A program made the translations under genes and the position numbers. From the NCBI GenBank assembly GCA_965232515.1, contig CBDDPY010000002.1:1504001-1568000 (forward strand): a stretch of 64,000 nucleotides of DNA. Reading direction: 5' to 3'. The DNA comes from Alphaproteobacteria bacterium. Lineage in GTDB: Bacteria > Pseudomonadota > Alphaproteobacteria > GCA-2731375. Shown here in pieces: positions 23,282 through 50,265 of the stretch. Below the pieces are notes generated by a model that saw only the letters and a program-made list of their open reading frames with translations, was not told where the DNA came from and made no database searches. Positions within the stretch are counted from its first letter, which is position 1; each line of letters begins with the position of its first letter.

Positions 23282-23376
23282 TGGTCCGAAATAGTTGAGC
23301 ACACTGTCACCGGAATCCTGTCCGTTCGAACGTGAGCCGTTCTTCGAGATACGGGATTAAGATGGATTGCGGTGGG

Positions 23377-23468
23377 TTATAGTGACAGTTTACGGCGCCC
23401 CCAATAGCAATGGTGGCGCAGGCCGAGTTGGATACTTAAAAAAGGGTTTCAGTAAACTGTCACCGTAA
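23377..23468. repeat. ~92-bp terminal-inverted-repeat element, full copy 1
   Basis: TTATAGTGACAGTTTAC...GTAAACTGTCACCGTAA with internal CCCCAAT..GGCGC..GAGTTGG. A lone end lies at 23301-23316. Confidence 0.8.
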
Positions 23469-23508
23469 TGGATAAAGCAGTGATGCAGAACGCGCTGGAG
23501 GACAAGCG

Positions 23509-23928: not shown

Positions 23929-24033
23929 TCACGCTCCGTGGATTCGAGCGAGGCGCGGTGCTGACGTTTTAGCTCCGGCCGGTGCGAAACGGCCAAGTCC
24001 CGATGCGCCCGAACCGAAGCGTGATCGTATCGA

Positions 24034-24290
24034 CAGGTTCAGATCATGCCCCCGTAACCAACTTGCACCGAGATAATCCAATTAAAGCAATGACTAACCA
24101 AGGCGGGCCAGGAGCCCGTCTTTTTCGTTCGATCAAGAATCAATGACTTAGCCCGCAAGTTCAAACCACCCCGCAACCAACTCGCTGCCAAGTCTGCCGA
24201 TGAAGCAGAACAGCGAAGCGGTTGGGTTCGACCCACGGCGGTCGTTGAGACTAGGTGACATGAACGGCTGAAGAGCGGACAAAGCAGACA
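24034..24290 (+). repeat. Composite repeat: degenerate tRNA-fMet 3' end, hairpin, second tRNA-like 3' end
   Basis: Colinear and similar to 36320-36590. The segment from 24172 also matches 26915-27000. Confidence 0.75.
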
Positions 24291-24340
24291 ATCTCAAAGT
24301 AGGGCATCTTGCTGATATTCGCCCAAAACGGCCATTCCCC

Positions 24341-24392
24341 TAAAGCCATCCACAATACGCAACGATGTTGTTGCGTATTGTGGATGGCTTTA
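24341..24392. repeat. Perfect 23-bp inverted repeat around a GCAAC-N6-GTTGC core
   Basis: TAAAGCCATCCACAATACGCAAC-gatgtt-GTTGCGTATTGTGGATGGCTTTA. A second GCAAC-N6-GTTGC lies at 24404-24419. Confidence 0.85.
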
Positions 24393-24422
24393 GCTTATGA
24401 AGGGCAACAAAGGAGTTGCACT

Positions 24423-24878
24423 ATGGCTAATTCAGACGACGACAGGATTGTGAAAGTCGTCGAGCTGCGGGCGCCGCTCGCTCGGGTTTGGAAAGCCCTT
24501 ACAGATCATAAGGAGTTCGGGCATTGGTTTCGCGTCGATCTCGATCAGAAGTTTCAGGTTGGCAGGAAGTCAACGGGCCAAATGACTTATCCAGGCCACG
24601 AAGGCGCCCCCTGGGTCGTTTATATCGAACGCATGGAGCCGGAGCGCCTGTTCACCTTTCACTGGTACGATTCCGATGACGGTTCGAAGCAAAATGACGA
24701 TCAGCCGGCCCTGCTGGTCGAGTTTCAGCTGGAAGAAATCCCGAACGGAACGCGCCTGACCATCACTGAGTCGGGGTTCTCCGCACTGCTCCATCCCCGC
24801 AGGATCGAGGTGATGCGAGGCAACCAAGAGGGCTGGAATATTCAGGCGGACAACCTTGCCCGATATTTATCAGCATAA
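24423..24878 (+). CDS. SRPBCC/AHSA1-like protein
   Basis: APLARVWKALTD, PERLFTFHW, GTRLTITESGF, GW. Confidence 0.88.
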   Translation: MANSDDDRIVKVVELRAPLARVWKALTDHKEFGHWFRVDLDQKFQVGRKSTGQMTYPGHEGAPWVVYIERMEPERLFTFHWYDSDDGSKQNDDQPALLVEFQLEEIPNGTRLTITESGFSALLHPRRIEVMRGNQEGWNIQADNLARYLSA

Positions 24879-25562: not shown

Positions 25563-25889
25563 TCAGCGTTTCCGCTTCCCCCTTGCGATCTCTGTGGCGA
25601 GTGCTTCGAACCTCGGTTCCCAGAACCGCCGGAATGGGGCGAGCCAGTGGTCGACTTCTTCAAGGCCTGAGGCGTTGAGGGCGTAGATGCGGCGAGTGCC
25701 CTCCTCGGTCACCGTCGCGAACCCGTTCTCTCGCAACGTCCTGAGATGCTGCGAAACGGCCGGCTGGGTGATCCCGAATTCCCCACCCACGATCTCAACA
25801 ATCGCACCGGAGGAAAGTTCGTGATCGGACAGTAGTTCGAGGATACGCCTGCGCACCGGATCGCCAAGTATATCAAAAGCGTGCATCAC
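25563..25889 (-). CDS. ArsR-family regulator
   Basis: FDILGDPVRRRILELL, ITQPAVSQHLRTLR. Confidence 0.9.
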   Translation of the reverse strand: MMHAFDILGDPVRRRILELLSDHELSSGAIVEIVGGEFGITQPAVSQHLRTLRENGFATVTEEGTRRIYALNASGLEEVDHWLAPFRRFWEPRFEALATEIARGKRKR

Positions 25890-26527
25890 TCGCCCACATA
25901 AGCCGCACCCGTGCGCGCCGCCATGGCGCGCGCGACGTCGGGTGCTTCACCCGCCGCGATGTGCGCTGCCCCCCAAGCGTCAGCGCAGGCGTGCATGAAC
26001 GCCTTGCCCGCATCCGAAGCCATCCAGGCATCGTTGGCTTCGCGGTCGATCGGCGCGCCGCCGCTGTCCAGGTGAAGGGCCAGGCCGAGGAACGACAGGT
26101 CCCAGCCGACGCCGGTCGCGCCGGGGCCGAATTGCGTCCAGTGCTCTTCGCCGACTTCGTCCTTCAACATTGTATGTTCAAGCGTCAGGCGCGTGCCGTC
26201 CCCGTCAGACGCGAGCCGGATGGTCACCCAGCTCACATGCCCGCCGAATTCCCAGGTCGCGTCCAGCGCCTCGGGTGGGTCGCATCGGGTAATCTCACCT
26301 GCGGCATTGCCCTCCAACTGATATCGGCCGCCGAGCCGGAGATCCCCTGTGATCGGCAGGAACCAGCGAGGAAGGCGTTCGATATTGGTCAGCGCGTCCC
26401 AAAGGTCGTCCGGATCGGTGGCGTAGGTGCGCGCGCCCCTCACGACACGAACTGGTTTGCCGTCATGTGTGGCACCCCTAACCTCACGAAACTCGATGCC
26501 GAGCGCGTCGCTGTAGTCCATTGCCAT
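25886..26527 (-). CDS. SRPBCC/AHSA1-like protein
   Basis: DLWDALT, RWFLPITGDLRLGGRYQLEGNA, GPGATGVGWD; overlaps the ArsR start. Confidence 0.88.
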   Translation of the reverse strand: MAMDYSDALGIEFREVRGATHDGKPVRVVRGARTYATDPDDLWDALTNIERLPRWFLPITGDLRLGGRYQLEGNAAGEITRCDPPEALDATWEFGGHVSWVTIRLASDGDGTRLTLEHTMLKDEVGEEHWTQFGPGATGVGWDLSFLGLALHLDSGGAPIDREANDAWMASDAGKAFMHACADAWGAAHIAAGEAPDVARAMAARTGAAYVGE

Positions 26528-28841: not shown

Positions 28842-29444
28842 TCACGCGGTCACGCGCACGCGCTTTGCCAAGGCAGAAGCGCCCAGTGCGCCGAGACCGG
28901 TAAGGAAGAGCGAGATAGAGGCGGGCAGCGGAATGGATGTTGGCGGCGATGCGATCCCGACCAGCACATTTGAGCCCGGCGCATAGTTAAACCTAGCGAA
29001 GTCACCGATCCTGTGGATTGGCGAGCCTCCGGAAATGCTACGAAATTCCCACCGAAAGGAGCTGTCGTTGTCGTCGATAATGGTAAAGCGCCCGCCACTG
29101 CCGAAGCTCATGAAAAGCGCCGTACCGGTTGCCGTCAATGCGTAGTCGCCGCGAATATCGATCGTCGAGTTTGCCGGGGTTAGCGTTGTGACAAAATTGA
29201 AGGGTGCGCCGTTGACCGCGCCGACAGCGTCGAGTGTCAGACTGTAATCGAGGATCTGCGCGGCAGAAGAAATGGTTCCGATGTCCTCAATCTCAAAAAG
29301 CCCCTCCATCGATGCACGCGGGCAACCCGTCTGGCAGGCGATGCCGCTTGTGTTGGAAAAGGCGGCATAGGTAATCGCTTTGGCCGCAACCGGGTGTAAG
29401 AGGCCAAGCGTGAGCGCAAGGACGGCAAGAATTCGAGGTTCCAT
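28842..29444 (-). CDS. VPLPA-CTERM surface protein, family B copy 1
   Basis: Leader MEPRILAVLALTLGLLHPVAAKA; C-terminus IPLPASISLFLTGLGALG. Alternative start at 29501. Confidence 0.85.
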   Translation of the reverse strand: MEPRILAVLALTLGLLHPVAAKAITYAAFSNTSGIACQTGCPRASMEGLFEIEDIGTISSAAQILDYSLTLDAVGAVNGAPFNFVTTLTPANSTIDIRGDYALTATGTALFMSFGSGGRFTIIDDNDSSFRWEFRSISGGSPIHRIGDFARFNYAPGSNVLVGIASPPTSIPLPASISLFLTGLGALGASALAKRVRVTA

Positions 29445-29497
29445 GGGTGGTTTCTTTCTCAAGTTGTGCGACGCAAGCCGCGGTACAAACAACTTGC

Positions 29498-30154
29498 TCA
29501 TGACATCTTCCAGGGGCCGATGCGGCGGCGCCGGGCGAGAGCAAGTCCGGCAAGGCCGCTGAGAACGAGGGCGAGACTGCCCGGACCGGTCACTTCCTGC
29601 GTTTCGGCCGTGATCGTGATGGGGCCCAGCGCCTCTTCGATGGCCAGCACGCCCACGAAACTTCCACGAGGAAACGACACCGGCCCGAACCGCGGGCTGA
29701 GGATTACCGTGAACGGGTCGGGGCCGCTTAGAGACAACAAGCCGTCCGTGGGCTGTCCGGTACCCAACACCGCATCCGTGATGGCAACGGCTGGATCGAT
29801 GAAGCTGAACTCGAGGTTAATGCTGATGGGGAGAGGGAGACCACTCGTTCCAATTCGCAGGTCGAACGGGTTTACGGGCCGCAGGGCGACGACGCCGGAC
29901 GGGTCAAAATCGATGTTCAAAAGGCCTGTTGCGCTGCCCAGCGTCACCTCGACCTGAAACTCGTCGCCCGCGCCAATCGTCGCGGTATCCGAGACCGGCG
30001 CAACGGATGCAAGGGTCGTCGGGCTTCCAAAAACGGATGTCGCGCTTGCCGACAGCGAGACCTCAAATCCGGTGAAATCCAGGATTGGCGCGGACTGGGC
30101 CGCCGTCGGAAGGCTCATTGCAAGTGCCAACGCCGCAATGGCTCTGATGAACAT
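29498..30154 (-). CDS. PEP-CTERM-like surface protein, family A (only intact copy)
   Basis: Signal peptide MFIRAIAALALAMSLPTAAQSA; C-terminus VTGPGSLALVLSGLAGLALARRRR. Confidence 0.82.
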   Translation of the reverse strand: MFIRAIAALALAMSLPTAAQSAPILDFTGFEVSLSASATSVFGSPTTLASVAPVSDTATIGAGDEFQVEVTLGSATGLLNIDFDPSGVVALRPVNPFDLRIGTSGLPLPISINLEFSFIDPAVAITDAVLGTGQPTDGLLSLSGPDPFTVILSPRFGPVSFPRGSFVGVLAIEEALGPITITAETQEVTGPGSLALVLSGLAGLALARRRRIGPWKMS

Positions 30155-30467
30155 GGTTTACTCCCTTACCGACTCGTCCGCACGGCCAAGCGTGTTCGGC
30201 GCTCTCGCGTTCGTAGCAGCTTTCAAAAAGGAGTTCATTGCACCAGCGTCCCAATCTGCATGGCGCCGATTGACCCGTGCCCCTTCGCTGGCCGGCGCGA
30301 GGCCGTGGATCGCAGACAGGGATGTCGTTCGCCGTCCAGCGAGGGGCCCGCGACATCGGTCGTTCGTGTCAAAAAGTGGGAAACGCCACGCATTTTGAGA
30401 CGCTGGTGCAACGAACTCTGTCGCGCGATGGGCTAATATTGGCCGCTTAGTTTGCGCGTGGGGAACA

Positions 30468-31481
30468 TTGACGGTGTCATCGGCCGACCCTATCCCATCG
30501 TCTCATTTCGATGCTTTGACCCTGGAGCCGCGGGTCCGGGCGGAAGCCTGGCGCGAGTTTTCGAAGGAGCTCGTCGATATCTCGCCGTTGCGTCAGCCCA
30601 AGCGCGACATCCGGTTCTCCTGGGATGCGTGGCACATCGAGGACGTTTTCGCTTACGGGTTTGTCGACGATTGTCTGATCGGCAAGCGGACAAAGAAACA
30701 TACCAGCCGGTCGCAGGGCTATCTCAGCATCAGGGTCTATAAGAACGGGCGCTCGCGCGGCCTGCTGGGCGATCAGATCTGCCACACGAGCGCCGGCAAC
30801 ATTCATGTGATGGACTTCTCGCTGGAACGTTACGGCGTCGACATCGACAACGTGGTCGACGGCGTTTACGTGCCTCAGGAAGCCGTCGGCTACGATCCGC
30901 GCCGCCACCCCGCTAGCTTCAATATCCCGGTGGACACGCCGCTCGGGCGGACGTTGAGCTTCGCCATCCAATCGCTGTTGCAGGATCTGCCGGACCTGCG
31001 CTGGCGCCATGCACACGATGTCAAGGCGCGTGTTCTTGCCCTTCTGCGGGCCGTCTTTGCGAATACCAGCGTGGATGACGAAGCGCGCGCCGCCTTTGCG
31101 GACGCCAGGCTTGGCGCCATGCGCCAGTTTGTCGACGGGCACCTGTCGGACGCGGACCTGGGCGTCGACCGCCTGTGCCGGGCCTTCAACGTCTCTCGGT
31201 CGACTCTGTTCCGGATCTTCGCCGACCTGGGGGGCGTGGAAGCCTATATCCGCGAACGTCGTACGGACTATGCCTTCCGGGATCTTCTGTATACAGAACC
31301 CGCGCGCGGCGCGGTCGGCAAGATCGCCGAGGCCTGGTGTTTCCACAGCGCAAGCCATTTTCACCGCCAGTTCCGCGCGCAATACGGCGCGCAGCCGAGC
31401 GAACTCCTGGGCGGTGCGGCGGCCGGCGCGGAACTTACGAGAGGCGATCAGGCCGGCCCGTCGTGGTATCTGGCCGAATAA
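30468..31481 (+). CDS. AraC-family regulator 1
   Basis: GYDPRRHP; LCRAFNVSRSTLFRIF; IAEAWCFHSASHFHRQFR. Confidence 0.85.
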   Translation: MTVSSADPIPSSHFDALTLEPRVRAEAWREFSKELVDISPLRQPKRDIRFSWDAWHIEDVFAYGFVDDCLIGKRTKKHTSRSQGYLSIRVYKNGRSRGLLGDQICHTSAGNIHVMDFSLERYGVDIDNVVDGVYVPQEAVGYDPRRHPASFNIPVDTPLGRTLSFAIQSLLQDLPDLRWRHAHDVKARVLALLRAVFANTSVDDEARAAFADARLGAMRQFVDGHLSDADLGVDRLCRAFNVSRSTLFRIFADLGGVEAYIRERRTDYAFRDLLYTEPARGAVGKIAEAWCFHSASHFHRQFRAQYGAQPSELLGGAAAGAELTRGDQAGPSWYLAE

Positions 31482-31549
31482 ACGCGATTGCGAGATCCGC
31501 GCCCGCTATGCGCCATCGGGATTCAGGATTCGATTGAGGCGTGAGGACG

Positions 31550-32584
31550 ATGGACGACCCGACGCTGATCGACAAGTTGAGCATCAATCTCGCCGGCGCC
31601 GAGCCGGCGCAGCGTGCCGACCTGTGGGCGGACGCGGTGCGCCCCCTTTACGATGTTTCGCCACTCGGCGGCACGGCGGAGAACCATTTGACCCGGGCGA
31701 CGGCTTGGCTCCTGGACTCGCTCGTCCTGATCAATGCGGCATTCGGCGGTCAGCTGGTCCATCGGCGTCAGCGGCATTTGAAGGCCGACGTCGCGGATTC
31801 CGTGGTGCTGGAAATCTATCTGTCCGGCGCCGTGCAGCGCGATCTGGCCGGCGAGCCGGTCTCCATCCGGCCGGGCGATATCAACGTCATGGACTACAGC
31901 CGTGAATACCAGGGCCGCTCGACGCCGGCGGAACTGGTCAATCTCCTGGTCTCTCACGACCTCATCGGCTACGACCCCAGCCGTCATCCGGGCTCGATGC
32001 GGATCCCCGGGGACAGCGCTGTCGGACAGGTTCTCGGCAACACGCTGCAAAATACCTTCCGGCAGCTCGACCGCGTCACCAAGGCCGAGGCGCCTTGCAT
32101 CGCCCGGGGGCTGACCGCGCTTCTGCGCAGCGTGTTGATCGAGGATGCCGCCAAGGCCCAGTCGTCTCCGGCCTTCGCCAGCGCCCGCAGCCAGGCCATT
32201 CGCGCTTACATCGAACGGCATCTGCGCGACGAAACGCTCGGCGCCGACACGATCTGCGCGCAGTTCAACATCTCCCGCGCGACCCTCTACCGCAACCTGA
32301 AGGCGGAGGGCGGGCTTGAGCGCTATGTCGTCGCCCGACGACTCGAAGCGGCCCTCATGTCTCTCGCCTTCGGGCCGGCGGAGCGTGGTGCGGTCGTCCG
32401 TGCGGCGGAGCATTGGCGTTTCGCCTCCACCACCCATTTCAGCCGGGAATTCCGCCGCCGGTTCGGCTTCGCGCCGAGCGATGTCGTCCACCAGGGACAG
32501 CGCGCGAACGTCGACGAACCGGGCGGCACGCACCAGCAACGCGAACGGCACATCAACATCCTGCCCTTCCTACGGCGTCTTTGA
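31550..32584 (+). CDS. AraC-family regulator 2
   Basis: GYDPSRHP; ICAQFNISRATLYR; HFSREFRRRFGFAPS. Confidence 0.87.
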   Translation: MDDPTLIDKLSINLAGAEPAQRADLWADAVRPLYDVSPLGGTAENHLTRATAWLLDSLVLINAAFGGQLVHRRQRHLKADVADSVVLEIYLSGAVQRDLAGEPVSIRPGDINVMDYSREYQGRSTPAELVNLLVSHDLIGYDPSRHPGSMRIPGDSAVGQVLGNTLQNTFRQLDRVTKAEAPCIARGLTALLRSVLIEDAAKAQSSPAFASARSQAIRAYIERHLRDETLGADTICAQFNISRATLYRNLKAEGGLERYVVARRLEAALMSLAFGPAERGAVVRAAEHWRFASTTHFSREFRRRFGFAPSDVVHQGQRANVDEPGGTHQQRERHINILPFLRRL

Positions 32585-32610
32585 GACGGTCAGACCACAA
32601 AGTCGCGACG
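32582..32610 (+). promoter_or_regulatory. Candidate AraC tandem operator
   Basis: TGAGACG-N15-CGCGACG (22-bp period), the same architecture as 38675-38703, upstream of a PEP-CTERM gene. Confidence 0.5.
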
Positions 32611-32713
32611 CCTGGATCACGACATCACGGGGCCGTTTCGCCAGGATAGCCTGACGTTCCGACCGCTTTGGCGCCCGCCTGCCAGCGGCTCGTTTTGTTT
32701 GAAGGATCCAGGC

Positions 32714-33262
32714 ATGATCAAAACGATACTCGCCTCCTGCGCCGCCGCCGCCATCGCATTTGGCGCCACCGCCGCCGCCGCGATGCCCCTGGCGTTCGAT
32801 TTCACCATCGACCTGACGGCAGGGCCCGACGGCACGGGGAGCTTCACGATCGACGGCGCGGAGCTGACGGGCAGCGGTCTTGAGATATTCGCGCCGAATA
32901 GCGGCAGCAACACCCTTTTTTCGTTCACCGCAATGGTCGGCGGCCTGACATACACGGCAGCCGACGATCCGAGCTTCGACGAGTTTCCGCAAGTCAGCTT
33001 CCAGGATGGCGTCGTCACCAGCATCAGCTACGCCGGTGAAATCGGCAATCAGTGCCTGAGCATCGGCGCGGGCGCTGGCCTCGGCGTTTTCTTCGGCGAC
33101 CTCTCCGGTTCACCTCTGGAATGCGCCGAACCTGGGTTCTCGTCCGGCGAGATCACCAACATCACCACGGACACGGCCAGTCCGGTTCCAGCGCCCGCGA
33201 CGGCACTGTTGTTCGCGACCGGGATCGGTGTTCTGGGGCTTTGGCGCCGTCGCCGCGCATGA
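32714..33262 (+). CDS. PEP-CTERM-type (VPAP) surface protein
   Basis: Signal peptide; C-terminus VPAPATALLFATGIGVLGLWRRRRA. Confidence 0.85.
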   Translation: MIKTILASCAAAAIAFGATAAAAMPLAFDFTIDLTAGPDGTGSFTIDGAELTGSGLEIFAPNSGSNTLFSFTAMVGGLTYTAADDPSFDEFPQVSFQDGVVTSISYAGEIGNQCLSIGAGAGLGVFFGDLSGSPLECAEPGFSSGEITNITTDTASPVPAPATALLFATGIGVLGLWRRRRA

Positions 33263-33546
33263 CGCTCGTGCGCGGGCTTCCTGTTTGCAACACCGTTTCA
33301 ACGCGTCGGCGAAGCGCAAGATCAACGGTTGACGTGCCTTTGTATCGCCGATGACGACCTGAAACTTGATTTTGCAGATGGTCCCACTCGCGCTGCCGGT
33401 CTTCCACGGCACGGATCCGACCGCGGCGCTGTTTGCCTTGAAGGGAAAGGCGCCGGACGGCTCGGTCTTTGGAGTTGGTTCGATCACCGACCGACTTGAT
33501 CGGAAACCGAGATCATCCGGGGATGTCAGTTCTGGGAGATGTAACG

Positions 33547-34167
33547 ATGAGGTTGATGAGCTTAGGTGCAGCCGTGGTCGCGGCTGGAATTGCAACCTTC
33601 GGTCCGCCGATCATAACCGCCAATGCCGCCGTTATCGTCACGGTGCAGGAAGTCGGTCAAAACGTGGTTTTCGAATCCACCGGCTCACTGGACATAGCCG
33701 GCCTCACGCCGATTGAACAGCAAAACACCTTCGGCTTGGTACGGGGCACGGAATTGTTTGTCTTTGGGACGCCCGGCGTTGACACTACAGTAGATGCTTA
33801 CTTAGCAACGTCCGTTCCGACAAATTTTGGCGGATCCGAGATATCCGCCCCGGACTCGTTCGTCGCGACCAGTCCTCCCGACAGCGCCTTCGGCGCCCTG
33901 ATCGGCCCTCCAGTCATTCGCCTGCCCTTGGGTTACACGTCGGGAACGCCGTTGATCTTCGAAATGGCGTTCATTGACGAGAGCTTCATGAGTATGGAGC
34001 TTACCCCAGGCACGTATGTCTGGACGTTGGAGAATGACGATACCGTCACCCTGCAAATCGGCGGCCCGGCCGAGGTGACGGCGCCGCCGACGTTGTCGAT
34101 GCTTGGGGCGGCCGTTGTCGGCCTGGGGCTGGTTGCCAGGCGCCGGCGCAAGGCCCGATCCCGCTAG
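33547..34167 (+). CDS. PEP-CTERM-like surface protein
   Basis: Signal peptide; VTVQEVGQNVVF..GSLD; TPGTYVW; C-terminus VTAPPTLSMLGAAVVGLGLVARRRRK. Confidence 0.82.
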   Translation: MRLMSLGAAVVAAGIATFGPPIITANAAVIVTVQEVGQNVVFESTGSLDIAGLTPIEQQNTFGLVRGTELFVFGTPGVDTTVDAYLATSVPTNFGGSEISAPDSFVATSPPDSAFGALIGPPVIRLPLGYTSGTPLIFEMAFIDESFMSMELTPGTYVWTLENDDTVTLQIGGPAEVTAPPTLSMLGAAVVGLGLVARRRRKARSR

Positions 34168-34171
34168 GACG

Positions 34172-34276
34172 ACGGCGACAGTTTACGAAATCGCTTTTTC
34201 GACACGCGTTCTGGCCGCGCTCCCCGCGCCATTTTGGAGAATTTGCAAACCATCACCGGTACTAAACTGTCACCGT
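34172..34276. repeat. TIR element, full copy (105 bp, reversed interior)
   Basis: ACGGCGACAGTTTAC...CTAAACTGTCACCGT. Confidence 0.75.
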
Positions 34277-34328
34277 TATTGGGTCGAACGCGCCTGCCCG
34301 TGCGGATGAGTTACTAATGGAGTAAACG

Positions 34329-34616
34329 ATGTTCATCAGAGCCATTGCGGCATTGGCACTGGCGATTGGCTTGCCGGCAGCGGCGCAATCCGCGCCAATC
34401 CTGGATTTCTCCGGATTTGAGGTCTCGCTTTCGACAAGCGCGACAAGCGTTTTTGGTAGCCCGACGACCCTTGCGTCCGTTGCGCCGGCCTCGGATACGG
34501 CAACGATTGGCGCCGGCGACGAATTCCAGGTCGAGGTGACGCTGGGCAGCGGAACAGGCCTCTTAAGCATCGACTTTGGTCCGTCCGACGCCGCCGTGTC
34601 GGCCCCTAAAACATGA
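34329..34616 (+). pseudogene. Family A copy 2 with large internal deletion (sorting signal lost)
   Basis: First ~86 codons are near-identical to the 30154 gene, then the sequence jumps to that gene's last ~25 nt (cgccgccg..tcggcccct). Confidence 0.8.
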
Positions 34617-34674
34617 CATGGGCAGGACGTTTGTACCGCTGCCTGCGTCGCACAAATTGAGAAAGAAACCACCC

Positions 34675-35271
34675 ATGGCATCCAGAATTCTTGCCGTCCT
34701 TGCGCTCACTCTTGGCCTCTTACACCCGGTGACGGCCAAAGCGATTACCTATACCGCCTTTTCCAACACAAGCGGCATCGCCTGCCAGACCGGATGCGTT
34801 GCAAGTGCAACGATGGAGGGCTTTTTTACGATTGCGGACATTGGAACCATTTCTTCTCCCGCGCAGATCCTCGATTACAGCCTGACACTCGACAACCGAA
34901 ATGTACCCCCTCCCTTCAGTTTCTTGACAACGCTAACCCCGGCAAACTCGACGATCGATATTCGCGGCGACTACGCATTGACCGCCACCGGTACGGAGCT
35001 TTTCATGAGCTTCGGCAATAGCGGGCGCTTTGTCATTGTCGCCAGCAACCTCTCCTTTCGATGGGAATTTCGCAGCATTGCCGGTGGCTCACCAATCCAC
35101 AGGATCGGTGACATCCATTCGTTTAACTATGCGCCGGGCACAAATGTGCTGGCCGGGATCGCATCACCGCCAACGTCCATTCCTCTGCCCGCCTCTATCT
35201 CGTTCTTCGCCACCGGTCTCGGCGCACTGGGCGCTTTCGCCTTCGCGAAGCGCGGGCGCAGGACCACGTGA
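34675..35271 (+). CDS. VPLPA-CTERM surface protein, family B copy 2
   Basis: Same framework as B1 with different loops; IPLPASISFFATGLG. Confidence 0.85.
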   Translation: MASRILAVLALTLGLLHPVTAKAITYTAFSNTSGIACQTGCVASATMEGFFTIADIGTISSPAQILDYSLTLDNRNVPPPFSFLTTLTPANSTIDIRGDYALTATGTELFMSFGNSGRFVIVASNLSFRWEFRSIAGGSPIHRIGDIHSFNYAPGTNVLAGIASPPTSIPLPASISFFATGLGALGAFAFAKRGRRTT

Positions 35272-35308
35272 CGCGCCGCGCCGCCCGGATACCGAAAGGC
35301 CCAATGGA

Positions 35309-35339
35309 ATTATGGTGACAGTTTGTTGAACTCCTAAAC
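35309..35339 (+). repeat. Degenerate left half of the TIR element before a family C gene
   Basis: ATTATGGTGACAGTTTGTTGAACTCCTAAAC. Confidence 0.7.
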
Positions 35340-35351
35340 AGTGAGAGCAAT

Positions 35352-35942
35352 ATGTTTCGACGACTGACGAAGGCGATGCTCGGCCTGGCCCTGCTGGCCA
35401 CGGCCAGCTACGCCGCGCCCGCAAAGGCGGCGCCGATCACCTTGCTGCTGACCTATGCCGAGTCCGGGGGCGGCACCATGACCGGAAGCGGCAGCGTCAC
35501 CTTCGACGACAGCCTGCTGGCGCCCGGCCTGATCACCATCGAAGCACCGCCCACGAGCCTCGACGCATTTTCGCTCATCCTGTTCGATCCCGTATTCCCG
35601 GGCGGATCGACGTCATTTGCGCTCGCCGATCTGTCGGAATGGCTTCTTTTGCCCGGCCCAACCGGCCGCGCCGAAGACATCTTCGACATTAACTTCTTCA
35701 TGAATACGGCCAATAGCGACGGATTCAGTTTCTCCGGCCTGGACCCAAACCTTATTGAGGTCTGTGACGGCTCGGCGGCTGGCAACCCCGATCCCGGGTG
35801 TAGCAGCCTCGGTTCAACGCCTCTGGCCGCACTCGAATTGCGCGACATCGCGGTCGCCGTGCCCCAGCCCGCCACCATCACCCTCCTCGGCGCTGGCCTC
35901 CTCGCCCTCGGCTGGGCCCGCCGCCGCGCCGCGTTGCGGTGA
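35352..35942 (+). CDS. PEP-CTERM-type (VPQP) surface protein, family C copy 2
   Basis: Leader nearly identical to C1 up to AKAAPIT, unrelated passenger domain, C-terminus VPQPATITLLGAGLLALGWARRR. Stop codon lies inside the following TIR. Confidence 0.85.
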   Translation: MFRRLTKAMLGLALLATASYAAPAKAAPITLLLTYAESGGGTMTGSGSVTFDDSLLAPGLITIEAPPTSLDAFSLILFDPVFPGGSTSFALADLSEWLLLPGPTGRAEDIFDINFFMNTANSDGFSFSGLDPNLIEVCDGSAAGNPDPGCSSLGSTPLAALELRDIAVAVPQPATITLLGAGLLALGWARRRAALR

Positions 35943-36025
35943 CAGTTTACTCGATCCCCAAATGATAATGGAGGCGCAACCGAAGTCGGTTTTTGAGAAA
36001 GGAATTCAGTAAACCGTCACTGTAA
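35934..36025. repeat. TIR element, full copy (92 bp)
   Basis: TTGCGGTGACAGTTTAC...GTAAACCGTCACTGTAA; internal CCCCAAAT..GGCGCAACCGAAGTCGG. Confidence 0.85.
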
Positions 36026-36115
36026 CTCCCGAGACCGGAAGGCTAAGACACCGCCGGCCTTGCCGACCTTCAGATCGGCCAAGCGTCCGGGTTCGACGCA
36101 TCTGGATCATGCCTT

Positions 36116-36258
36116 GCAGCCGGGACAGCTTTCCTGAAGGTCGGCCCCAACCTCGCAATGCGCACCGTCCTCACCGGCCCCGAGGCCGCCCGGCACGCCT
36201 ACCGTACGCTGGTCGACGGCGACGTCGACCAGAACGAGGCGCTGGTGCTGACGTCTTA
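36116..36258 (+). pseudogene. Decayed copy of the DUF2855 gene 3' end
   Basis: Aligns to 23131-23275 (ttcctgaag..cccaacctcgc..ctcaccggccccga..gcctaccg..gaacgaggcgctggtgct). Confidence 0.8.
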
Positions 36259-36319
36259 GGGATAGTCAGGCCGCGGTCGGCAACTGCCGAAGCATTGGCC
36301 CTATCGAAAATCCGCATCA

Positions 36320-36590
<271 letters not shown>

Positions 36591-36651
36591 AAGAACGACT
36601 TAGGCGCCGCGTCTCCGGGTATTTTCAGGCGAGAGTTTCCGATGTATTCCC

Positions 36652-37140
36652 GTGAAGGAAACGAAGGCAAGGCTCAATTGTGGCGAAGCACTCGGCTTGG
36701 GAGACGAAACTTTGAACGCACTTGATAGGGTCCTCCCCAAGGGACTTCTGGTCGTGTCCGCGGGCCTGCTGTGCTGGGGGCTGCTGGGATTGTTGGAATA
36801 CGCGTTCCCAGAGTTGGATCTGGGTCTTCAAAACGGTGATTTTCCGCCCGGCCTTCAGTTTTTGCACTTCTTTGCACTTGTACTGACGGGATCGATCTTC
36901 TTTTTCGGCTACCTTTGGCGGTGGCCCCATACGCCTTACGCGACAATCACGATGTACGCCGTGCTGGCCGCCATCTGCTTTATCGAGACCATAGATTTCG
37001 GTGCATTCGGAGGCGGAACGACCGGCGTCATGATCATGCTTTGCGAGTTCGCCCTTTATGTCGGACTATCGACTTATCTGCTTCGATCAAACGGCGTCCA
37101 TAGTCATTTCAGCCGGGCCGGGCAAAAGCATGCCGTCTAG
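36652..37140 (+). CDS. Hypothetical four-helix membrane protein
   Basis: Four hydrophobic segments; start uncertain. Confidence 0.7.
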   Translation: MKETKARLNCGEALGLGDETLNALDRVLPKGLLVVSAGLLCWGLLGLLEYAFPELDLGLQNGDFPPGLQFLHFFALVLTGSIFFFGYLWRWPHTPYATITMYAVLAAICFIETIDFGAFGGGTTGVMIMLCEFALYVGLSTYLLRSNGVHSHFSRAGQKHAV

Positions 37141-37254
37141 ACGGTTGGGAATGCCCGAAAGGGGCTCTTTCCGGTCATTGCGGGTTCCGCTACCAACGGC
37201 CGCTTTTTGACCGAACCGTCACATTCAGGCGCTGTCATATATTGGATTGGCGCT

Positions 37255-37410
37255 TTATGAAGCTGCTTGGAAAAGGCCATGCTGCTGTCGACGGTTGCGC
37301 TCCCCCGCAACCAATTTTATAGATTCTTCAGTGAAGCCCTCCCGATCGGAGGGCTTCGCCTTTTGCGCCGCCGGCGAAAGAATGCCCGCCAGCTTGCCTT
37401 CCCGTACGTC
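37255..37410 (-). pseudogene. C-terminal remnant of a large serine recombinase, with att-like palindrome
   Basis: EGKLAGILS..AQKAKPSDREGFTEESIKLVAGERNRR resembles the G(D/E)LAGIL...KLVAG(A)RN tail of alphaproteobacterial recombinase-family proteins. Palindrome GGTTGCG-CTCCCC-CGCAACC at 37293-37312. Confidence 0.6.
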
Positions 37411-37528
37411 GCGGCGCCTTCCCAACGGCCCCGACCGGGCATCACGCGCTTGCGGAGCTAACCAGCCGCAGACGGTGCTCAAGCTTGTCAGGCCACCGGC
37501 TCGGATACAGTATGGTACCCGTCTGACC

Positions 37529-38575
37529 ATGCGCTACGACATCGACACATATCACGACCATGCCCGCGCGTTCTTTGGGGTCAAGCTACTCACGCCCAGA
37601 GAGGAGTTCCAGGCAGACGTTACATTTCTGCTGCACGACAATCTGATCGCGACGGACGTCAAGTTCTCCAACCAAATAATGGATCGGAATCCACAGCGGA
37701 TCACCGAATTCGACACAGAGTATGTCCTGCTCGAGACGTATTCGCGCGGGCACACGCGCGGTCTCTCGGACGGGCAACACACGACACTCGTCAACCCCGG
37801 CATCGTCCACCTGATAGACTGGTCGCGGAGCTATGTCGGTATGACCAATAGCGTCGAGGGCATTGGCGCTCAAATTCCCCATTCGGTACTTGGCTACGAC
37901 CCCTCAAAACATCCCGCTTATCTAGCGCTCCCGATAGAAGCAAGCCGCGGTCGGCTACTGTCCCTCAGCCTGCAGCTATTTGTCGAGGCGTTGCGCCACG
38001 GTCCATCGCGGGACGCGGAGGTGCTCGGAGCGACCCTCGTCGGGCTGGTTCGCACTTGCTTTTTGGGAGAGCGCGACTGGGATCGTGACCCAGCGCAGGA
38101 CAGGTCACGACGCGCCCTGATCGAAGAGCATATCCGGCGCAATCTCGGTCCCGAGGCCCTCGATATCGACCGGGTTTGCCGTGATCTCGGCATGTCGCGG
38201 GCCACCCTCTACCGCACCTTTGGCGGCGGCATCGAACAGTTCGTCAAAAGCGAGCGGCTGAACAAATGTTTCGCTGAACTTGCAAAGGGCAAGAGGGAGG
38301 CCGGCACCGTGCGCCGGGTGGCGGAGCGCTGGGGGTTCTACGATCCAGGCAATTTCCGCCGCAGTTTTCGGGCGTCGTTCGGCATTTCGCCGTCCGATTG
38401 CCTGGACGGCCCGCCGGCGCAGGACGGCCGCGATGTTTCATACGTCGACCACCCGGTCATGCGGATTCTCCGCGATCGCCGGGCAGCGGCCGGAACGCTT
38501 GGTAGCGATGGTCCGTTTCCGACGCCCCCGCCAGACCCGACGCGCCTGAGGCAGGGCGACGCTTCGCCTACCTGA
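37529..38575 (+). CDS. AraC-family regulator 3
   Basis: GYDPSKHP; VCRDLGMSRATLYRTF; VAERWGFYDPGNFRRSFR. Confidence 0.85.
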   Translation: MRYDIDTYHDHARAFFGVKLLTPREEFQADVTFLLHDNLIATDVKFSNQIMDRNPQRITEFDTEYVLLETYSRGHTRGLSDGQHTTLVNPGIVHLIDWSRSYVGMTNSVEGIGAQIPHSVLGYDPSKHPAYLALPIEASRGRLLSLSLQLFVEALRHGPSRDAEVLGATLVGLVRTCFLGERDWDRDPAQDRSRRALIEEHIRRNLGPEALDIDRVCRDLGMSRATLYRTFGGGIEQFVKSERLNKCFAELAKGKREAGTVRRVAERWGFYDPGNFRRSFRASFGISPSDCLDGPPAQDGRDVSYVDHPVMRILRDRRAAAGTLGSDGPFPTPPPDPTRLRQGDASPT

Positions 38576-38674
38576 CCATCCCGCCGGCAAGCGGTGGGAT
38601 TCAGGCCGCGCCTAGCCCGCATTTCTCACCACCACCACGGTCACGCCGACTGACCCCCCTGGGCAGTGTCGGCG

Positions 38675-38703
38675 TGAGACGCAGCGACTACAAACTTGAG
38701 ACG
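38675..38703 (+). promoter_or_regulatory. Candidate AraC tandem operator
   Basis: TGAGACG-N15-TGAGACG, about 90 bp upstream of the RBS/ATG at 38794. Confidence 0.55.
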
Positions 38704-38793
38704 CTCAGCCCTTGGCGAAGGGGTCGCTCTCTCTAGAGTAGACACTGTGCAAAACGCGCGAACGAAGTAGCGAGCCAGCAAGGAGCTACAGAA

Positions 38794-39013
38794 ATGAAAT
38801 CTCTCTTATCTGCGGTAACCGTTGGGTGCAGCCTCGCAACTACATCCTGGAAGTTTCGTGGGCGTGCTGGCCATTGAAGAGGCGCTGGGCCCCATCACGA
38901 TCGCGGCCGACATACGGGAAGTTACCGCTCCGAGCAGCCTCGCGCTGGTTCTTAGCGGCCTTGCCGGACTTGCTCTCGCCCGCCGCCGCATCGGCCCCTG
39001 GAACATGACATGA
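38794..39013 (+). pseudogene. Chimeric remnant: foreign signal-peptide start fused out of frame to family A C-terminus
   Basis: AGGAG + MKSLLSAVTVGCSLATT, then in another frame GSFVGVLAIEEALGPITI..SLALVLSGLAGLALARRRIGPW. Confidence 0.7.
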
Positions 39014-39066
39014 GCAGGTTGTTTGTACCGCGGCTTGCGTCGCACAACTTGAGAAAGAAGCCACCC

Positions 39067-39669
39067 ATGAAATCTAGAACTCTTGCCGTCCTTGCGCTCA
39101 CGCTTGGCCTCTTACACCCGGTTGCGGCCAAAGCGATTATCTATACCGCCTTTTCCAACACAAGCGGCATCGCCTGCCAGACGGGTTGCCCGCGTGCATC
39201 GATGGAGGGGCTTTTTGAAATTGAGGACATAGGGACCATTTCTTCCCCCGCGCAGATCCTCGATTACAGCCTGACACTCGACGCTATCGGCGCGCTCAAC
39301 GGCGTCCCCTTCAATTTCGTCACAACGCTAACCCCGGCAAACTCGACGATCGATATTCGCGGCGACTACGCATTGACCGCCACCGGTACGGAGCTTTTCA
39401 TGAGCTTCGGCAGTGCCGGGCGCTTTACGATTATCGACGACAACAACAGCTCCTTTCGATGGGAATTTCGCAGCATTGCCGGAGAGTCGCCAATCCACAG
39501 GATCGGTGACCTCTCTTCGATCGAATATGCGCCGGGCACAAATGTGCTGGCCGGGGTCGCTTCACCGCCAACATCCATTCCGCTGCCCGCCTCCATCTCG
39601 CTCTTCCTTACCGGTCTCGGCGCACTGGGCGCTTCAGCCTTGGCAAAACGCGTGCGCGGGGCCGCGTGA
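39067..39669 (+). CDS. VPLPA-CTERM surface protein, family B copy 3
   Basis: Framework shared with B1/B2/B4; loops closest to B1. Confidence 0.85.
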   Translation: MKSRTLAVLALTLGLLHPVAAKAIIYTAFSNTSGIACQTGCPRASMEGLFEIEDIGTISSPAQILDYSLTLDAIGALNGVPFNFVTTLTPANSTIDIRGDYALTATGTELFMSFGSAGRFTIIDDNNSSFRWEFRSIAGESPIHRIGDLSSIEYAPGTNVLAGVASPPTSIPLPASISLFLTGLGALGASALAKRVRGAA

Positions 39670-39683
39670 CGCGCCGCGCCGGA

Positions 39684-39790
39684 ATTGCGGTGACAGTTTA
39701 TTCAGTCCCCAAATAGTGAAGGAAGCATGTTTCGACGACTGACGAAGACCATGCTCGGCTGAGCCCGCCGCCGCCGCGTGCGCTGGCGGC
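39684..39790 (+). pseudogene. TIR left half plus collapsed family C gene (leader joined to tail)
   Basis: ATTGCGGTGACAGTTTATTCAGTCCCCAAAT, then MFRRLTKTMLG* with ctcggc joined to tgagcccgccgccgc, as in the C2 3' end. Confidence 0.75.
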
Positions 39791-39900
39791 ACGGCGCAAC
39801 GGAAGACACGCAGTGCCTGCCTGACGGGCGCAGCGAGCTCACACCATAGTCCGCCGTGGGGACGTTTGCGGCTTCACTGAGATCTGTACGAGGAAGAACA

Positions 39901-40025
39901 ATGATCATCCCGTCGAGAGTTGTCACAACGGCTGCCACATTGGCGGCCTCGCGCTGGTTCTTAGCGGCCTTGCCGGACTTGCTCTCGCCCGCCGCTGCCG
40001 CATCGGCCCCTGGAACATGACATGA
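39901..40025 (+). pseudogene. Chimeric remnant: another leader fused to the family A tail
   Basis: GAGGAAG + MIIPSRVVTTAATLA, then out of frame LALVLSGLAGLALARR.RIGPWNMT. Confidence 0.65.
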
Positions 40026-40078
40026 GAACGTTGTTTGTACCGCTGCTTCCGTCCCACAGTTTGAGAAAGAAACCACCC

Positions 40079-40675
40079 ATGGAATCTCGGATTCTTGCCG
40101 TCCTTGCCCTCACGCTTGGCCTCTTACACCCGGTTGCGGCCAAAGCGATTACCTATACCGCCTTTTCCAGCACAAGCGGCGCCGCCTGCCAGATAGGATG
40201 CTTTCCAGACGCAAAGATGGAGGGGTTTTTTACGATTGAGGACATTGGAACCATTTCTTCTGCCGCGCAGATCCTCGATTATGGCCTGACAGTCGACAGC
40301 GGAAGTGCACCGCACCCCTTTCGGTTCTTCACAACGCTAACCCCGGCAAACTCGACGATCAGAATTGCCGGCGACTACGCATTGACCGCCACCGGTACGG
40401 AGCTTTTCATGAGCTTCGGCAGTGGTGGGCGCTTTACCATTACCTCGGACGGCGGCAGTGCCGCTGATTGGGTATTTCGCGCCATTACCGGAGGCCCACC
40501 AGTCCACAGGATCGGTATCTCTGAGGCTAGGTATGCGCCGGGTGCAAATGTGCTAATCGGGATCGCATCACCGCCAACGTCGATTCCGCTGCCCGCCTCC
40601 ATCTCGCTCTTCCTTACCGGTCTCGGCGCACTGGGCGCTTCAGCCTTGGCAAAGCGCGTGCGCGGGACCGCGTGA
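40079..40675 (+). CDS. VPLPA-CTERM surface protein, family B copy 4
   Basis: Most divergent loops of the four; IPLPASISLFLTGLG. Confidence 0.85.
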   Translation: MESRILAVLALTLGLLHPVAAKAITYTAFSSTSGAACQIGCFPDAKMEGFFTIEDIGTISSAAQILDYGLTVDSGSAPHPFRFFTTLTPANSTIRIAGDYALTATGTELFMSFGSGGRFTITSDGGSAADWVFRAITGGPPVHRIGISEARYAPGANVLIGIASPPTSIPLPASISLFLTGLGALGASALAKRVRGTA

Positions 40676-40696
40676 CGCGCCGCGCCGGAGTTACGA

Positions 40697-40786
40697 TTAC
40701 GGTGACAGTTTACTAGATCCCCAAATGTAATAGCGGCGCCACCGAAGTCGGCTTCGGAGGAAGAAACTCGTAAACCGTCAACATAA
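40697..40786. repeat. TIR element, full copy (90 bp)
   Basis: TTACGGTGACAGTTTAC..CCCCAAAT..GGCGCCACCGAAGTCGG..GTAAACCGTCAACATAA. Confidence 0.82.
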
Positions 40787-40827: not shown

Positions 40828-41550
40828 TCAGGCGCAGCGAACCGGATAGGTCAGGCCGGAGAACAGGCCGGGCCTGTCGCCGTAGCTTCTCGACGGATCG
40901 TAGCGTTGGGCCAGGCCGGCCGACGGCGGCGTGTTTCCGGAGGCGTACGGATACCAGAGGAACCGGGGATTGACGATGAGGTCGCTGTAGGCCGCGAACT
41001 GAAGCAGGGACAACGTCCCGCCCTCGAATTCCGGCGGCGCTGGTCCGACGAGGGGGACCATGTGCAGGTGGTAGTTGTCCCAACCGCCGGAATCCGTGCC
41101 CGTGGCGCCCATCGTGCCGATCTGCTGGCCCCGCCCGACGTCCTCGCCGGCGCGCACGTCAAAGGTGTCGAGGTGCCAGTAGGTCGTGTAGATGTGGTTG
41201 CCGGACTCATCGGCCCCATGATGGATGGCGACAAACCGACCGCCATCGGACGTCGCGTCCACCAACAGCACCCGGCCCGGCGCCGACGCCAGGATCGGCG
41301 TTCCGCGCGGCAGGTGGATATCGATCCCCGGGTGGGGCCTACTGCGCAGCTTGCCGTGGGCGTTCGTCGCGGCCCACCACTCGGACTCGATGGGCGGGCA
41401 GCCTTGCGCCACGTCGCTCGGCGCGACCTGTTTCAGGGACACGGCATAGGGCGACGGCTTGATGTATTCCGCGCATCCGCCGATCGCGAGCAGGATCGAA
41501 ACGCCGACGCCGGACGCCAAGGCGGCTTTTCGGATCGGACGAGCTTGCAT
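40828..41550 (-). CDS. M23 family metallopeptidase, lipoprotein
   Basis: Lipobox-like LAIGGC; HPGID, TTYWHL, GTMGATG, YHLH. Confidence 0.85.
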   Translation of the reverse strand: MQARPIRKAALASGVGVSILLAIGGCAEYIKPSPYAVSLKQVAPSDVAQGCPPIESEWWAATNAHGKLRSRPHPGIDIHLPRGTPILASAPGRVLLVDATSDGGRFVAIHHGADESGNHIYTTYWHLDTFDVRAGEDVGRGQQIGTMGATGTDSGGWDNYHLHMVPLVGPAPPEFEGGTLSLLQFAAYSDLIVNPRFLWYPYASGNTPPSAGLAQRYDPSRSYGDRPGLFSGLTYPVRCA

Positions 41551-50249: not shown

Positions 50250-50265
50250 ATAACTTATCAGTTAT
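50250..50265. promoter_or_regulatory. ArsR-type operator overlapping the start codon
   Basis: ATAAC-TTATCA-GTTAT palindrome; TTGACG at 50229. Confidence 0.55.

Follow-up and report, generated by a model that had tools for sequence, protein, structure and literature searches.

Four paralogous candidate exosortase substrates with mosaic ancestry and variable patches at family-tolerant positions in an alphaproteobacterial genome

Exosortase substrates are numerous and almost all uncharacterised. Here we analyse a stretch of 64,000 nucleotides (nt), hereafter the window, from an alphaproteobacterial genome of 7,386,992 bases (four contigs, 96 % complete; the window is contig C2:1504001-1568000), in which four paralogous genes, B1 to B4, encode small proteins that combine a signal peptide with a sorting-type C-terminal tail. 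We think it probable, with real room for doubt, that B1-B4 are a lineage-restricted paralog expansion of an exosortase-substrate family, produced by cassette duplication and partial gene conversion, in which tolerant positions drift. Under this reading, the four would be expression-competent, exported paralogs that XrtA sorts to the surface or matrix. They would have arisen by segmental duplication of a three-gene cassette, A-B-C, within an island of low GC content at third codon positions (GC3) that carries three AraC/FeaR-type regulators and palindromic repeats; A and C would then have been deleted or truncated in the younger copies, with selection holding every B frame open. Partial gene conversion would homogenise some stretches, such that the ends of B4 (the spacer before the start, and the sorting tail with its 3' flank) match B1/B3, and the middle of the gene would retain older copy-specific states. 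The variable patches would drift near-neutrally (ratio of nonsynonymous to synonymous divergence, dN/dS or omega, ~0.5-1, locally ~2), giving each paralog a different surface with no active diversification.

Four open B genes amid decaying neighbours

B1 (28842..29501, minus strand) is an open reading frame (ORF) of 219 amino acids (aa) whose likely start, the second methionine at 29444, would yield a 200-aa precursor. B2 (34618..35271, plus strand) lies within a 231-aa ORF, 34576-35271, and has its likely start at 34675. B3 (39010..39669, plus strand) likely starts at 39067, and B4 (40022..40675, plus strand; likely start 40079) stands in tandem to B3 with a period of ~1010 nt. The four paralogous ORFs are 217-219 aa long. 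In the alignment B1 is 79, 89 and 79 % identical to B2, B3 and B4, respectively, and B1 and B3 form an inverted repeat of 779 nt at 92 % identity. Searching all 7,386,992 bases by tblastn with the four proteins recovered the B1-B4 loci and no further copy. We place the start at the second methionine because it is the called start in the relatives P0003, P0004 and P0005 and because the first 19 codons of the long ORFs give no indication of purifying selection in comparisons with B2; these codons are probably untranslated, and the precursor would then be ~200 aa. The framework blocks listed in an initial annotation of the window (CQxGC, DIGTISS, QILDY, TTLTPANSTI, GDYALTATGT, HRIG, YAPG and SPPTSIPLPAS) are all found in the alignment of B1-B4. 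None of the four frames contains a stop, despite synonymous divergence (dS) of 0.13-0.24 and 157 variable sites.

The unit that was duplicated has three genes in the order A-B-C, with B in the middle, and all three bear sorting tails. In cassette 1, A1 (29498..30154, minus strand) is intact, encoding 218 aa that include a signal peptide plus a PEP-CTERM-like tail, and its stop codon and the upstream ATG of the B1 ORF overlap (ATGA); the downstream gene C1 (28134..28784, minus strand; 216 aa) is intact as well. Homology to this cassette runs through 34285-34610 and 34582-35442 in copy 2, 38845-39754 in copy 3 and 39942-40727 in copy 4. The A2 remnant (34285..34616, plus strand) keeps the upstream region and the first ~88 codons, followed by a 333-nt internal deletion, and leaves a 95-aa ORF (34329-34616) without a sorting tail. 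Only the last ~55 codons of A are present in the A3 remnant (38845..39013, plus strand), and only the last ~27 in the A4 remnant (39942..40025, plus strand). The C2 gene (35352..35942, plus strand) is an intact PEP-CTERM ORF of 196 aa and a chimera; it shares with C1 the upstream DNA and 25 of the first 30 residues, that is, the signal peptide, and the bodies are unrelated. The C3 remnant (39727..39762, plus strand) has a C-type start and stops after 11 codons, and no C copy lies beside B4. The initial annotation had described intact B copies among decaying neighbours, and this holds, with A and C whole only beside B1 and deleted, truncated, chimeric or absent beside B2-B4. As a separate observation, the boundary of recombination or duplication between C1 and the C2 gene falls exactly at the junction of signal peptide and mature domain.

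Variable patches lie at positions that vary across the wider family

Four patches distinguish the copies. V1 reads PRAS in B1 (29310..29321, minus strand, after CQTGC), VASAT in B2 (34798-34812), PRAS in B3 (39190-39201) and FPDAK in B4 (40202-40216), with a one-codon insertion or deletion (indel). V2 reads AVGAVNGA in B1 (29205..29228, minus strand), NRNVPP in B2 (34894-34911), AIGALNGV in B3 (39283-39306) and SGSAPH in B4 (40298-40315), with a two-codon indel. V3, with a one-codon indel, reads TIIDDNDSSFR in B1 (29052..29084, minus strand), VIVASNLSFR in B2 (35032-35061), TIIDDNNSSFR in B3 (39427-39459) and TITSDGGSAAD in B4 (40436-40468), and V4, also with a one-codon indel, reads DFARFN in B1 (28986..29003, minus strand), DIHSFN in B2 (35110-35127), DLSSIE in B3 (39508-39525) and ISEAR in B4 (40517-40531). 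These strings, and the presence of indels in the loops, had been noted before; the strings are all present, with one in-frame indel per patch (1, 2, 1 and 1 codons). All four indels inside the B coding sequences (CDS) are multiples of three; the flanks hold a 23-nt indel and others that are not. The picture of four hypervariable spots on a conserved framework is nevertheless a simplification, in that the patches are real but 54 of the 143 mature positions vary and their clustering is just weakly above chance (maximum 9 per 10-residue window, permutation p = 0.048; runs test p = 0.20).

Positions variable among B1-B4 are also the less constrained ones in 75 distant family members, with an entropy of 2.97 bits versus 2.01 bits elsewhere (Mann-Whitney p = 3e-8); V3 reaches 3.2-3.7 bits and V4 3.4-3.9 bits. 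The V1 region (residues 35-42) is an insertion of the B clade that bears CQxGC and is 72-99 % gaps across the wider family. V2, V3 and V4 coincide with large family insertion points (1.4, 2.8 and 4.1 residues, respectively), and further such points lie just before V3 (2.6 residues) and, the largest of all, after residue 139 between V3 and V4 (5.7 residues). The patches are probably the structurally tolerant, exposed positions of the whole family; their appearance is that of normal, rapidly evolving surface positions and not of a diversity system akin to antibodies.

An AlphaFold2 model of B1 built from an 81-sequence alignment (pLDDT 85.7, pTM 0.73) is an all-beta domain of ~145 residues and 13 strands, which bears out the beta-rich scaffold proposed at the outset; helices at 3-14 and 175-199 of the model correspond to the signal peptide and the sorting tail. 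Another model, from 7 close sequences, had a pLDDT of 43.3 and was unusable. In the confident model V1 sits in the loop that connects strands 24-31 and 43-52, V2 forms the tip of a long hairpin (strands 64-77 / 80-88), V3 comprises the end of strand 118-124 and the loop 125-130, and V4 comprises the loop 147-149 and the short strand 150-153. Variable columns are equally common in predicted strands (33/88) and loops (22/56). Variable residues within modelled strands (for example 43, 45, 49 and 51) alternate with conserved hydrophobic ones (46, 48, 50 and 52), the usual signature of an exposed face. Foldseek against the PDB gave no match at E <= 0.001, VIA-align against 48,161 chains gave a top Z of 5.9 across 56 residues and none with Z >= 8, and the best hit of a sequence profile search of the PDB had E = 0.23. 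The weak structural matches (Z <= 5.9) are small beta barrels and sandwiches. This absence of a solved-fold match does not establish a new fold.

The mature domain is weakly constrained

Selection was assessed by pairwise Nei-Gojobori dN/dS and by region tests, on four sequences and hence with low power; family-variable positions were defined independently, from the wider family. Whole-gene pairs of B have dS 0.13-0.24 and omega 0.44-1.01. The sorting tail gives omega 0.11-0.30 among B1, B3 and B4 and 0.61-0.78 in pairs with B2, and the signal peptide 0.11-0.27 in four of six pairs, 0.50 for B2-B3 and 1.19 for B1-B3. The mature domain, strands and loops together, ranges from 0.35 to 1.47 and is weakly constrained. 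Within the gene, family-conserved positions have omega 0.34-0.65, and family-variable positions 0.52-0.92 in five pairs and 2.09 for B2-B4 (Fisher p = 0.09). Sliding windows of pN/pS reach 1.0-2.2 over codons 126-185.

The last two values are what one might expect of diversifying selection, with exposed hairpins facing a ligand, host or phage and the four paralogs together serving as a small repertoire for recognition on a constant beta scaffold. Consecutive variable residues number 8 in V2, 9 of 10 in V3 and 6 in V4, each patch having an in-frame indel, the alternation along strands is that of an exposed face, and the four frames stay open amid decaying neighbours, all of which fit such a repertoire. 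We nonetheless judge it unlikely. No comparison is significantly above 1, the best being the B2-B4 value, and silent divergence is raised in the patches too, which selection on amino acids does not explain. The share of variable residues is no higher in loops than in strands, and these residues fall at the family's least constrained positions, those that vary or bear indels in the 75 distant relatives. P0001, a 219-aa near-orthologue from another public source, keeps the loops of B3 almost unchanged: among 143 mature positions only 7 differ, and 3 of these are variable ones. The "CDR-like diversifying loops" of the initial annotation (after the complementarity-determining regions, CDRs, of immunoglobulins) are not upheld by these results, nor by the lack of a reverse transcriptase described below. 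Because P0001 retains the B3 loops, we read the B loops, on the sequences compared, as stable paralog-specific states.

Near-neutral change could also mean that B1-B4 are redundant duplicates bound to become pseudogenes, the cassette having been duplicated through chance recombination between repeats, with B open only through youth and its variation a neutral decay. Omega of 0.7-1.0 in most cross-clade pairs, low GC3 and the visible decay of A and C copies would suit this, as would the failure to find the family in 40 relatives, one of them a same-genus genome at 81 % completeness. The state of the B genes themselves argues the other way: all four indels are in frame and no stop has appeared despite the silent divergence and the 157 variable sites, the tail and signal peptide are under purifying selection in most pairs, family-conserved positions remain constrained, and close relatives are retained in other sources (P0001, P0004 and P0005). 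We regard passive decay as improbable, and favour drift of tolerant positions in genes that are still held open.

Mosaic ancestry of the B genes

Recombination was tested with our own simple permutation versions of two approaches, 3SEQ-style maximum descent and Sawyer-type runs. The CDS contains 25 informative nucleotide sites, of which 21 favour the split B1+B3|B2+B4, three B1+B4|B2+B3 and one B1+B2|B3+B4. The 21 sites are concentrated, with 15 in codons 59-105, spanning V1 and V2, and 17 within the stretch from the signal peptide to V2. Patchwork ancestry had been proposed earlier from conflicting shared states, SSAAQ (B1, B4) versus SSPAQ (B2, B3), FGSGG (B1, B4), NVLAG (B2, B3) and FNY (B1, B2). 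All are present, but just some are parsimony-informative conflicts, and as single examples they are weak, because 21 of the 25 informative sites back B1+B3|B2+B4 and several are shared ancestral states.

The case for a mosaic comes instead from how site patterns are distributed. The mix of B2-only, B4-only and B1B3|B2B4 sites is heterogeneous across four segments (chi-square 45.5, df 6, p = 3.7e-8), B2-only changes dominating both alignment ends (16 in the 5' segment and 17 in the 3' segment) and B4-only changes the V3-V4 stretch (24). In the triplet maximum-descent test of 24 ordered triplets with 20000 permutations, three had no permutation reaching the observed value: B4, which is B1-like at both ends and B2-like in alignment columns 597-847, and also B1 and B3 with parents B4 and B2. 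Sawyer-type runs gave p = 0.0009 for B2-B3 and p = 0.0068 for B3-B4. Compared in 40-column windows, B3 and B4 are 95-100 % identical in columns 1041-1160 and 45-67 % over V1-V4. Segment heterogeneity and the three triplets support patchwork ancestry, with local rate shifts as a remaining caveat; the odd-one-out copy changes along the gene. We read the pattern as partial gene conversion among the B copies, most clearly a putative conversion of the B4 ends by its tandem neighbour B3 or by B1.

Mosaic ancestry, conserved ends with a variable middle and the 779-nt, 92 % inverted repeat of B1 and B3 recall programmed variation, either conversion of one expressed locus from silent donors (the pilE/pilS or vlsE type) or a diversity-generating retroelement. 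Several observations make this highly improbable. No copy has the look of a silent cassette, given that a start codon, a signal peptide and a sorting tail are present in each. The reverse transcriptase family PF00078 had no match in this 96 %-complete genome, and a control search was positive in 3 of 14 reference genomes; without a reverse transcriptase, a diversity-generating retroelement is ruled out within this assembly. No recombinase or invertase was found among the island ORFs scanned against Pfam. Contigs of sequencing run X1 carry neither variant letters nor B-to-B joints, and the loops are stable in P0001. Partial gene conversion between complete genes remains our preferred account of the mosaic.

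The sequencing evidence comes from four runs compared as Logan contigs, which tell nothing of rare variants, of starts or of expression; gaps in the contigs over the B repeats reflect broken assembly. In run X1, 97 % of the sampled words are present and the contigs show no differing letters and no B-to-B joints; this run is probably the window's source or very close to it. Run X3 is nearly identical to the window. The relative represented in runs X4 and X5 is roughly 90-97 % identical, and its contigs span portions of the island including B3, in which their differences cluster at 39295-39318, inside V2. A small share of words also occurs in marine, coral and sediment metagenome runs and has no bearing on habitat. 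X5, an RNA library, contains the joints 28711/34644 (opposite strands), 28786/28123 (a 664-nt step back with 38 other letters) and 35549/36131 (a 581-nt skip). Its strain seems to have a different gene order or content in the cassettes, although this is uncertain, each joint being a single contig with short sides.

A broad-sense PEP-CTERM tail and a single exosortase

The N-terminus of B, read from the sequence, runs ...LLHPVAAKA|ITY, with the signal peptide ending in VAAKA and the mature domain beginning at ITY. The C-terminal tail, IPLPASISLFLTGLGALGASALAKRVR, consists of IPLPAS, a hydrophobic stretch and then KRVR. This appears to be the broad layout of PEP-CTERM-class substrates, namely a signal peptide together with a C-terminal motif, hydrophobic helix and terminal Arg/Lys cluster. 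The B1-B4 tails score 22.8-23.6 bits on the VPLPA-CTERM model TIGR03370 (profile positions 1-19/20 of 25) and do not reach its cut-off of 25.35, whereas the C1 tail, at 37.8 bits, is a member and the genome's best VPLPA-CTERM tail. NCBIfam matches to B are confined to the tail; none of the named PEP-CTERM body families (PepA NF033554, XDP1, EDSAP-1, THxN, FxDxF and others) matched B1-B4 in NCBIfam at E <= 0.01, and the B body had no family match in Pfam.

The genome has one exosortase locus, C2:6573161-6573904, on the same contig as the window (PF09721 at 229 bits). It scores 315 bits on the XrtA profile (cut-off 208), has the EpsI domain and is adjoined by a TIGR03087 PEP-CTERM/XrtA-system glycosyltransferase gene. 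On XrtD (TIGR04152), the cognate of VPLPA-CTERM, this sole locus scores 156 bits against a cut-off of 400. Because the B tails fall under the TIGR03370 cut-off and the sole exosortase is of XrtA type, without XrtD, we class B as a putative PEP-CTERM-class exosortase substrate in the broad sense, not a TIGR03370/XrtD member. XrtA/EpsI most likely processes the B tails, which would place B at the cell surface or in the exopolysaccharide matrix.

B1-B4 belong to a narrow clade of a wider family

Among 5.77 billion sequences the B clade comprises five clusters at E <= 0.001, two of which correspond to B4 and B2 of the window itself, with P0001 (90 % identical), P0004 (85 %, truncated) and P0005 (51 %) making up the rest. 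A narrow B profile matched none of 40 relatives, including the same-genus genome at 81 % completeness, and a scan of genome contigs found no B relative. A metagenome scan returned two loci at 27-28 % identity, one of which, L006, is a single copy in a cyanobacterium-like context. Exhaustive phmmer gave eight matches, four of them ~190-aa proteins with the B layout; P0006 (895 aa) and P0007 (1728 aa), which match via short repeated low-complexity stretches, were judged spurious and kept out of the alignments. A profile built from the phmmer relatives retrieved 269 proteins at E <= 0.001 among 8000 candidates scored, of ~175-280 aa and labelled hypothetical, PEP-CTERM or VPLPA-CTERM. When another profile was run on the 40 relatives, 13 genomes besides the own one had matches, but those listed mostly cover the C-terminal tail and were not counted as B family. 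Because close clusters are so few beside the 269-protein wider family, we regard B as a divergent and apparently lineage-restricted clade of a widespread uncharacterised family. A full-text literature search found no published account of the B clade, and none of the papers it retrieved on PEP-CTERM proteins and exosortases mentioned gene conversion.

The same contig carries a second tandem array at C2:6781028-6783448 (locus L014, 3026-5449), with four distant family members in two pairs, ~30 % identical to B. Their tails end in LGWLCCR, and they have a layout of conserved blocks and variable patches like that of B. Immediately upstream, the opposite strand encodes a 517-aa CadC-like winged-helix regulator, and the XrtA locus is ~208 kb from the array.

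The island, its regulators and a palindromic element

GC3 is 0.64-0.82 in the island genes (0.66-0.68 in the B genes) versus 0.85-0.92 in most neighbouring core genes. Three AraC/FeaR-like regulators lie on the plus strand. The first (30468..31481) is divergent from cassette 1, the second (31541..32584) is upstream of E, F, the A2 remnant, B2 and the C2 gene, and the third (37247..38575) is upstream of the A3 remnant, B3, the C3 remnant, the A4 remnant and B4. With mutual identities of 26-31 %, they stand outside the recent cassette duplication. ORF E (32699..33262, plus strand; 187 aa) has a PEP-CTERM tail and ORF F (33469..34167, plus strand; 232 aa) a PEP-CTERM-like tail.

A palindromic element of ~100 nt, with arms ACGGTGACAGTTTAC / GTAAACTGTCACCGT, occurs in full at 23379-23466, 34172-34276, 35936-36023 and 40699-40780, and single arms occur near 28094, 28810, 35310, 39687 and 50002. 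An arm follows the stop codon of B1, B2, B3, B4, C1, the C2 gene and F. Exact arms number six in the genome, five of them in the window; with up to two mismatches there are 24 genome-wide, 11 between window positions 23379 and 50002. An exact arm also lies at C2:6774379, on the same contig and ~6.6 kb from the second family array. The element folds as a long hairpin (z = -2.3 to -3.7 in three of four copies), and its arm is similar to a -35/-10 pair (GTGACA, 16 nt, AATGAT). Possible roles are a terminator or stabiliser, a site for a regulator, a mobile repeat, or the recombination substrate by which the cassette moved. Rfam at gathering thresholds gave no match in the window and ARAGORN no whole tRNA there; promoter-like matches (3 versus 2.8 expected) and terminator-like matches (16 versus 13.3 expected) are uninformative.

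C1 and the C2 gene share the signal peptide only, B4 has B3-like ends around a divergent core, and the tail of A travels with every B. For these reasons we raise the idea that the coding ends for signal peptide and sorting tail, together with the palindromic element, act as portable homology arms for copying, swapping or converting mature domains between loci. We hold it to be rather doubtful; if true, surface proteins would form a modular repertoire, with every array under an AraC-type regulator of its own.

Other features near the cassettes were observed. A segmental duplicate of 23132-24181 lies at 35939-36468, with 23132-23270 resembling 36116-36254 (85 %) and 24026-24181 resembling 36313-36468 (80 %), and the palindrome is in both. 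Each member holds two fragments, ~120 nt apart, that match, over 29-33 nt at 97-100 %, the 3' ends of tRNA-Met genes located in other parts of the genome. By their sequence these fragments look like attachment-site scars, flanking ~12 kb that include cassettes 1 and 2. X4 and X5 contigs skip 119-120 nt between two of the tRNA-Met fragments, at 36335/36456, and X1 contig depth in the bin 36203-36639 is ~10x that of neighbouring bins. Directly downstream of B4 and convergent with it is an M23 peptidase gene with a lipoprotein-like N-terminus (40828-41550, minus strand). ORFs of AHSA1/SRPBCC type lie at 24309-24878, 25886-26527 and 50628-51122, two of which follow ArsR-family regulators (25563-25889 and 50264-50635), and this ArsR plus AHSA1/SRPBCC module is repeated on either side of the island. 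Farther away, 6639-10084 is a low-GC stretch (0.45 at 8001-10000) with a DDE transposase fragment (6639-7016), a 532-aa KaiC/AAA-type ATPase ORF (8016-9614) and a 157-aa ORF without a family match, and is likely a separate insertion.

Discussion

Several points weigh against a lineage-restricted expansion shaped by cassette duplication, partial conversion and drift. The permutation tests assume exchangeable sites, and copy-specific local rate shifts, such as rapid change midway along B4 or degeneration of the B2 flanks, could mimic part of the mosaic signal; the B2-B3 Sawyer run itself sits in a stretch rich in B4-only changes. Omega in the C-terminal half of the mature domain, with V3 and V4, is 0.78-1.75, none of it significant, and such near-1 values together with low GC3 are also compatible with loss of function. 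The B2-B4 omega of 2.09 (p = 0.09), from four sequences with little power, leaves room for some positive selection. Cross-clade silent divergence is raised at family-variable positions (0.29-0.40 versus 0.11-0.15), an excess that fades once codons within 3 of a gap are removed (p = 0.03-0.25). With the B tails under the VPLPA-CTERM cut-off and XrtD not found, processing by XrtA is an inferred step, and contigs from a related strain in an RNA library, which cover portions of the island, do not prove transcription. Control of the B genes by the AraC-type regulators and a functional difference between the paralogs are likewise what we infer.

The locus reveals no new mechanism of diversification. 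It is a clean example of how an exosortase-substrate gene multiplies and exchanges segments, and it yields a confident model (pLDDT 85.7) for an unnamed family of ~270 or more proteins without a solved-fold match. Four natural surface variants with three AraC-type regulators nearby could be used to ask what such proteins bind.

Comparison with known systems

The targets of diversity-generating retroelements and the CDRs of immunoglobulins carry variable patches on a beta scaffold; the variation in B, by comparison, is neither confined to loops nor faster than silent change, and the genome is without a reverse transcriptase. Surface families that vary by gene conversion, pilE/pilS, vlsE and opa, have conserved ends, a variable middle and mosaic ancestry. 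B is alike in all three respects and differs in that its copies are all complete, with no silent cassettes or dedicated recombination machinery seen, and its loops are stable between sources.

Among characterised PEP-CTERM exoproteins, ZepA of Anabaena is a 27-kDa, two-domain zinc-handling protein with an H-X(2-9)-H-F/Y-H zinc site under Zur control (PMC10957091). It shows that exoproteins of this kind undergo cleavage at both ends and release, and that specific ligand-binding roles are possible for them (PMC10957091). Both ZepA and B are small PEP-CTERM proteins; B lacks the zinc motif, differs in size and stands beside AraC-type regulators, and ZepA, which we had weighed as an analogue in function, was rejected as a relative.

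B also resembles the substrates of the PEP-CTERM/VPLPA-CTERM class (PF07589, TIGR02595 and TIGR03370). It shares their signal peptide and their tail of motif, helix and basic residues, and XrtA/EpsI with its glycosyltransferase is present in the genome. Many paralogs per genome with unrelated or variable bodies are typical of the class, and the nearest ESM Atlas clusters to B are PEP-CTERM hypothetical proteins. The differences are a B tail with IPLPAS instead of VPLPA, below the cut-off, the lack of XrtD and a body in no named family. A further likeness is to the unnamed family of ~190-210-aa proteins, from which the B clade is set apart by an identity of 25-30 % and by its clade-specific CQxGC insertion. 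B and this family agree in length, in the order of blocks (A-I/T-T-Y after the signal peptide, G-T-I-x-T-D-G, L-T-A-T...L-x-F-x-F and the sorting tail), and in the positions at which they vary and carry indels.

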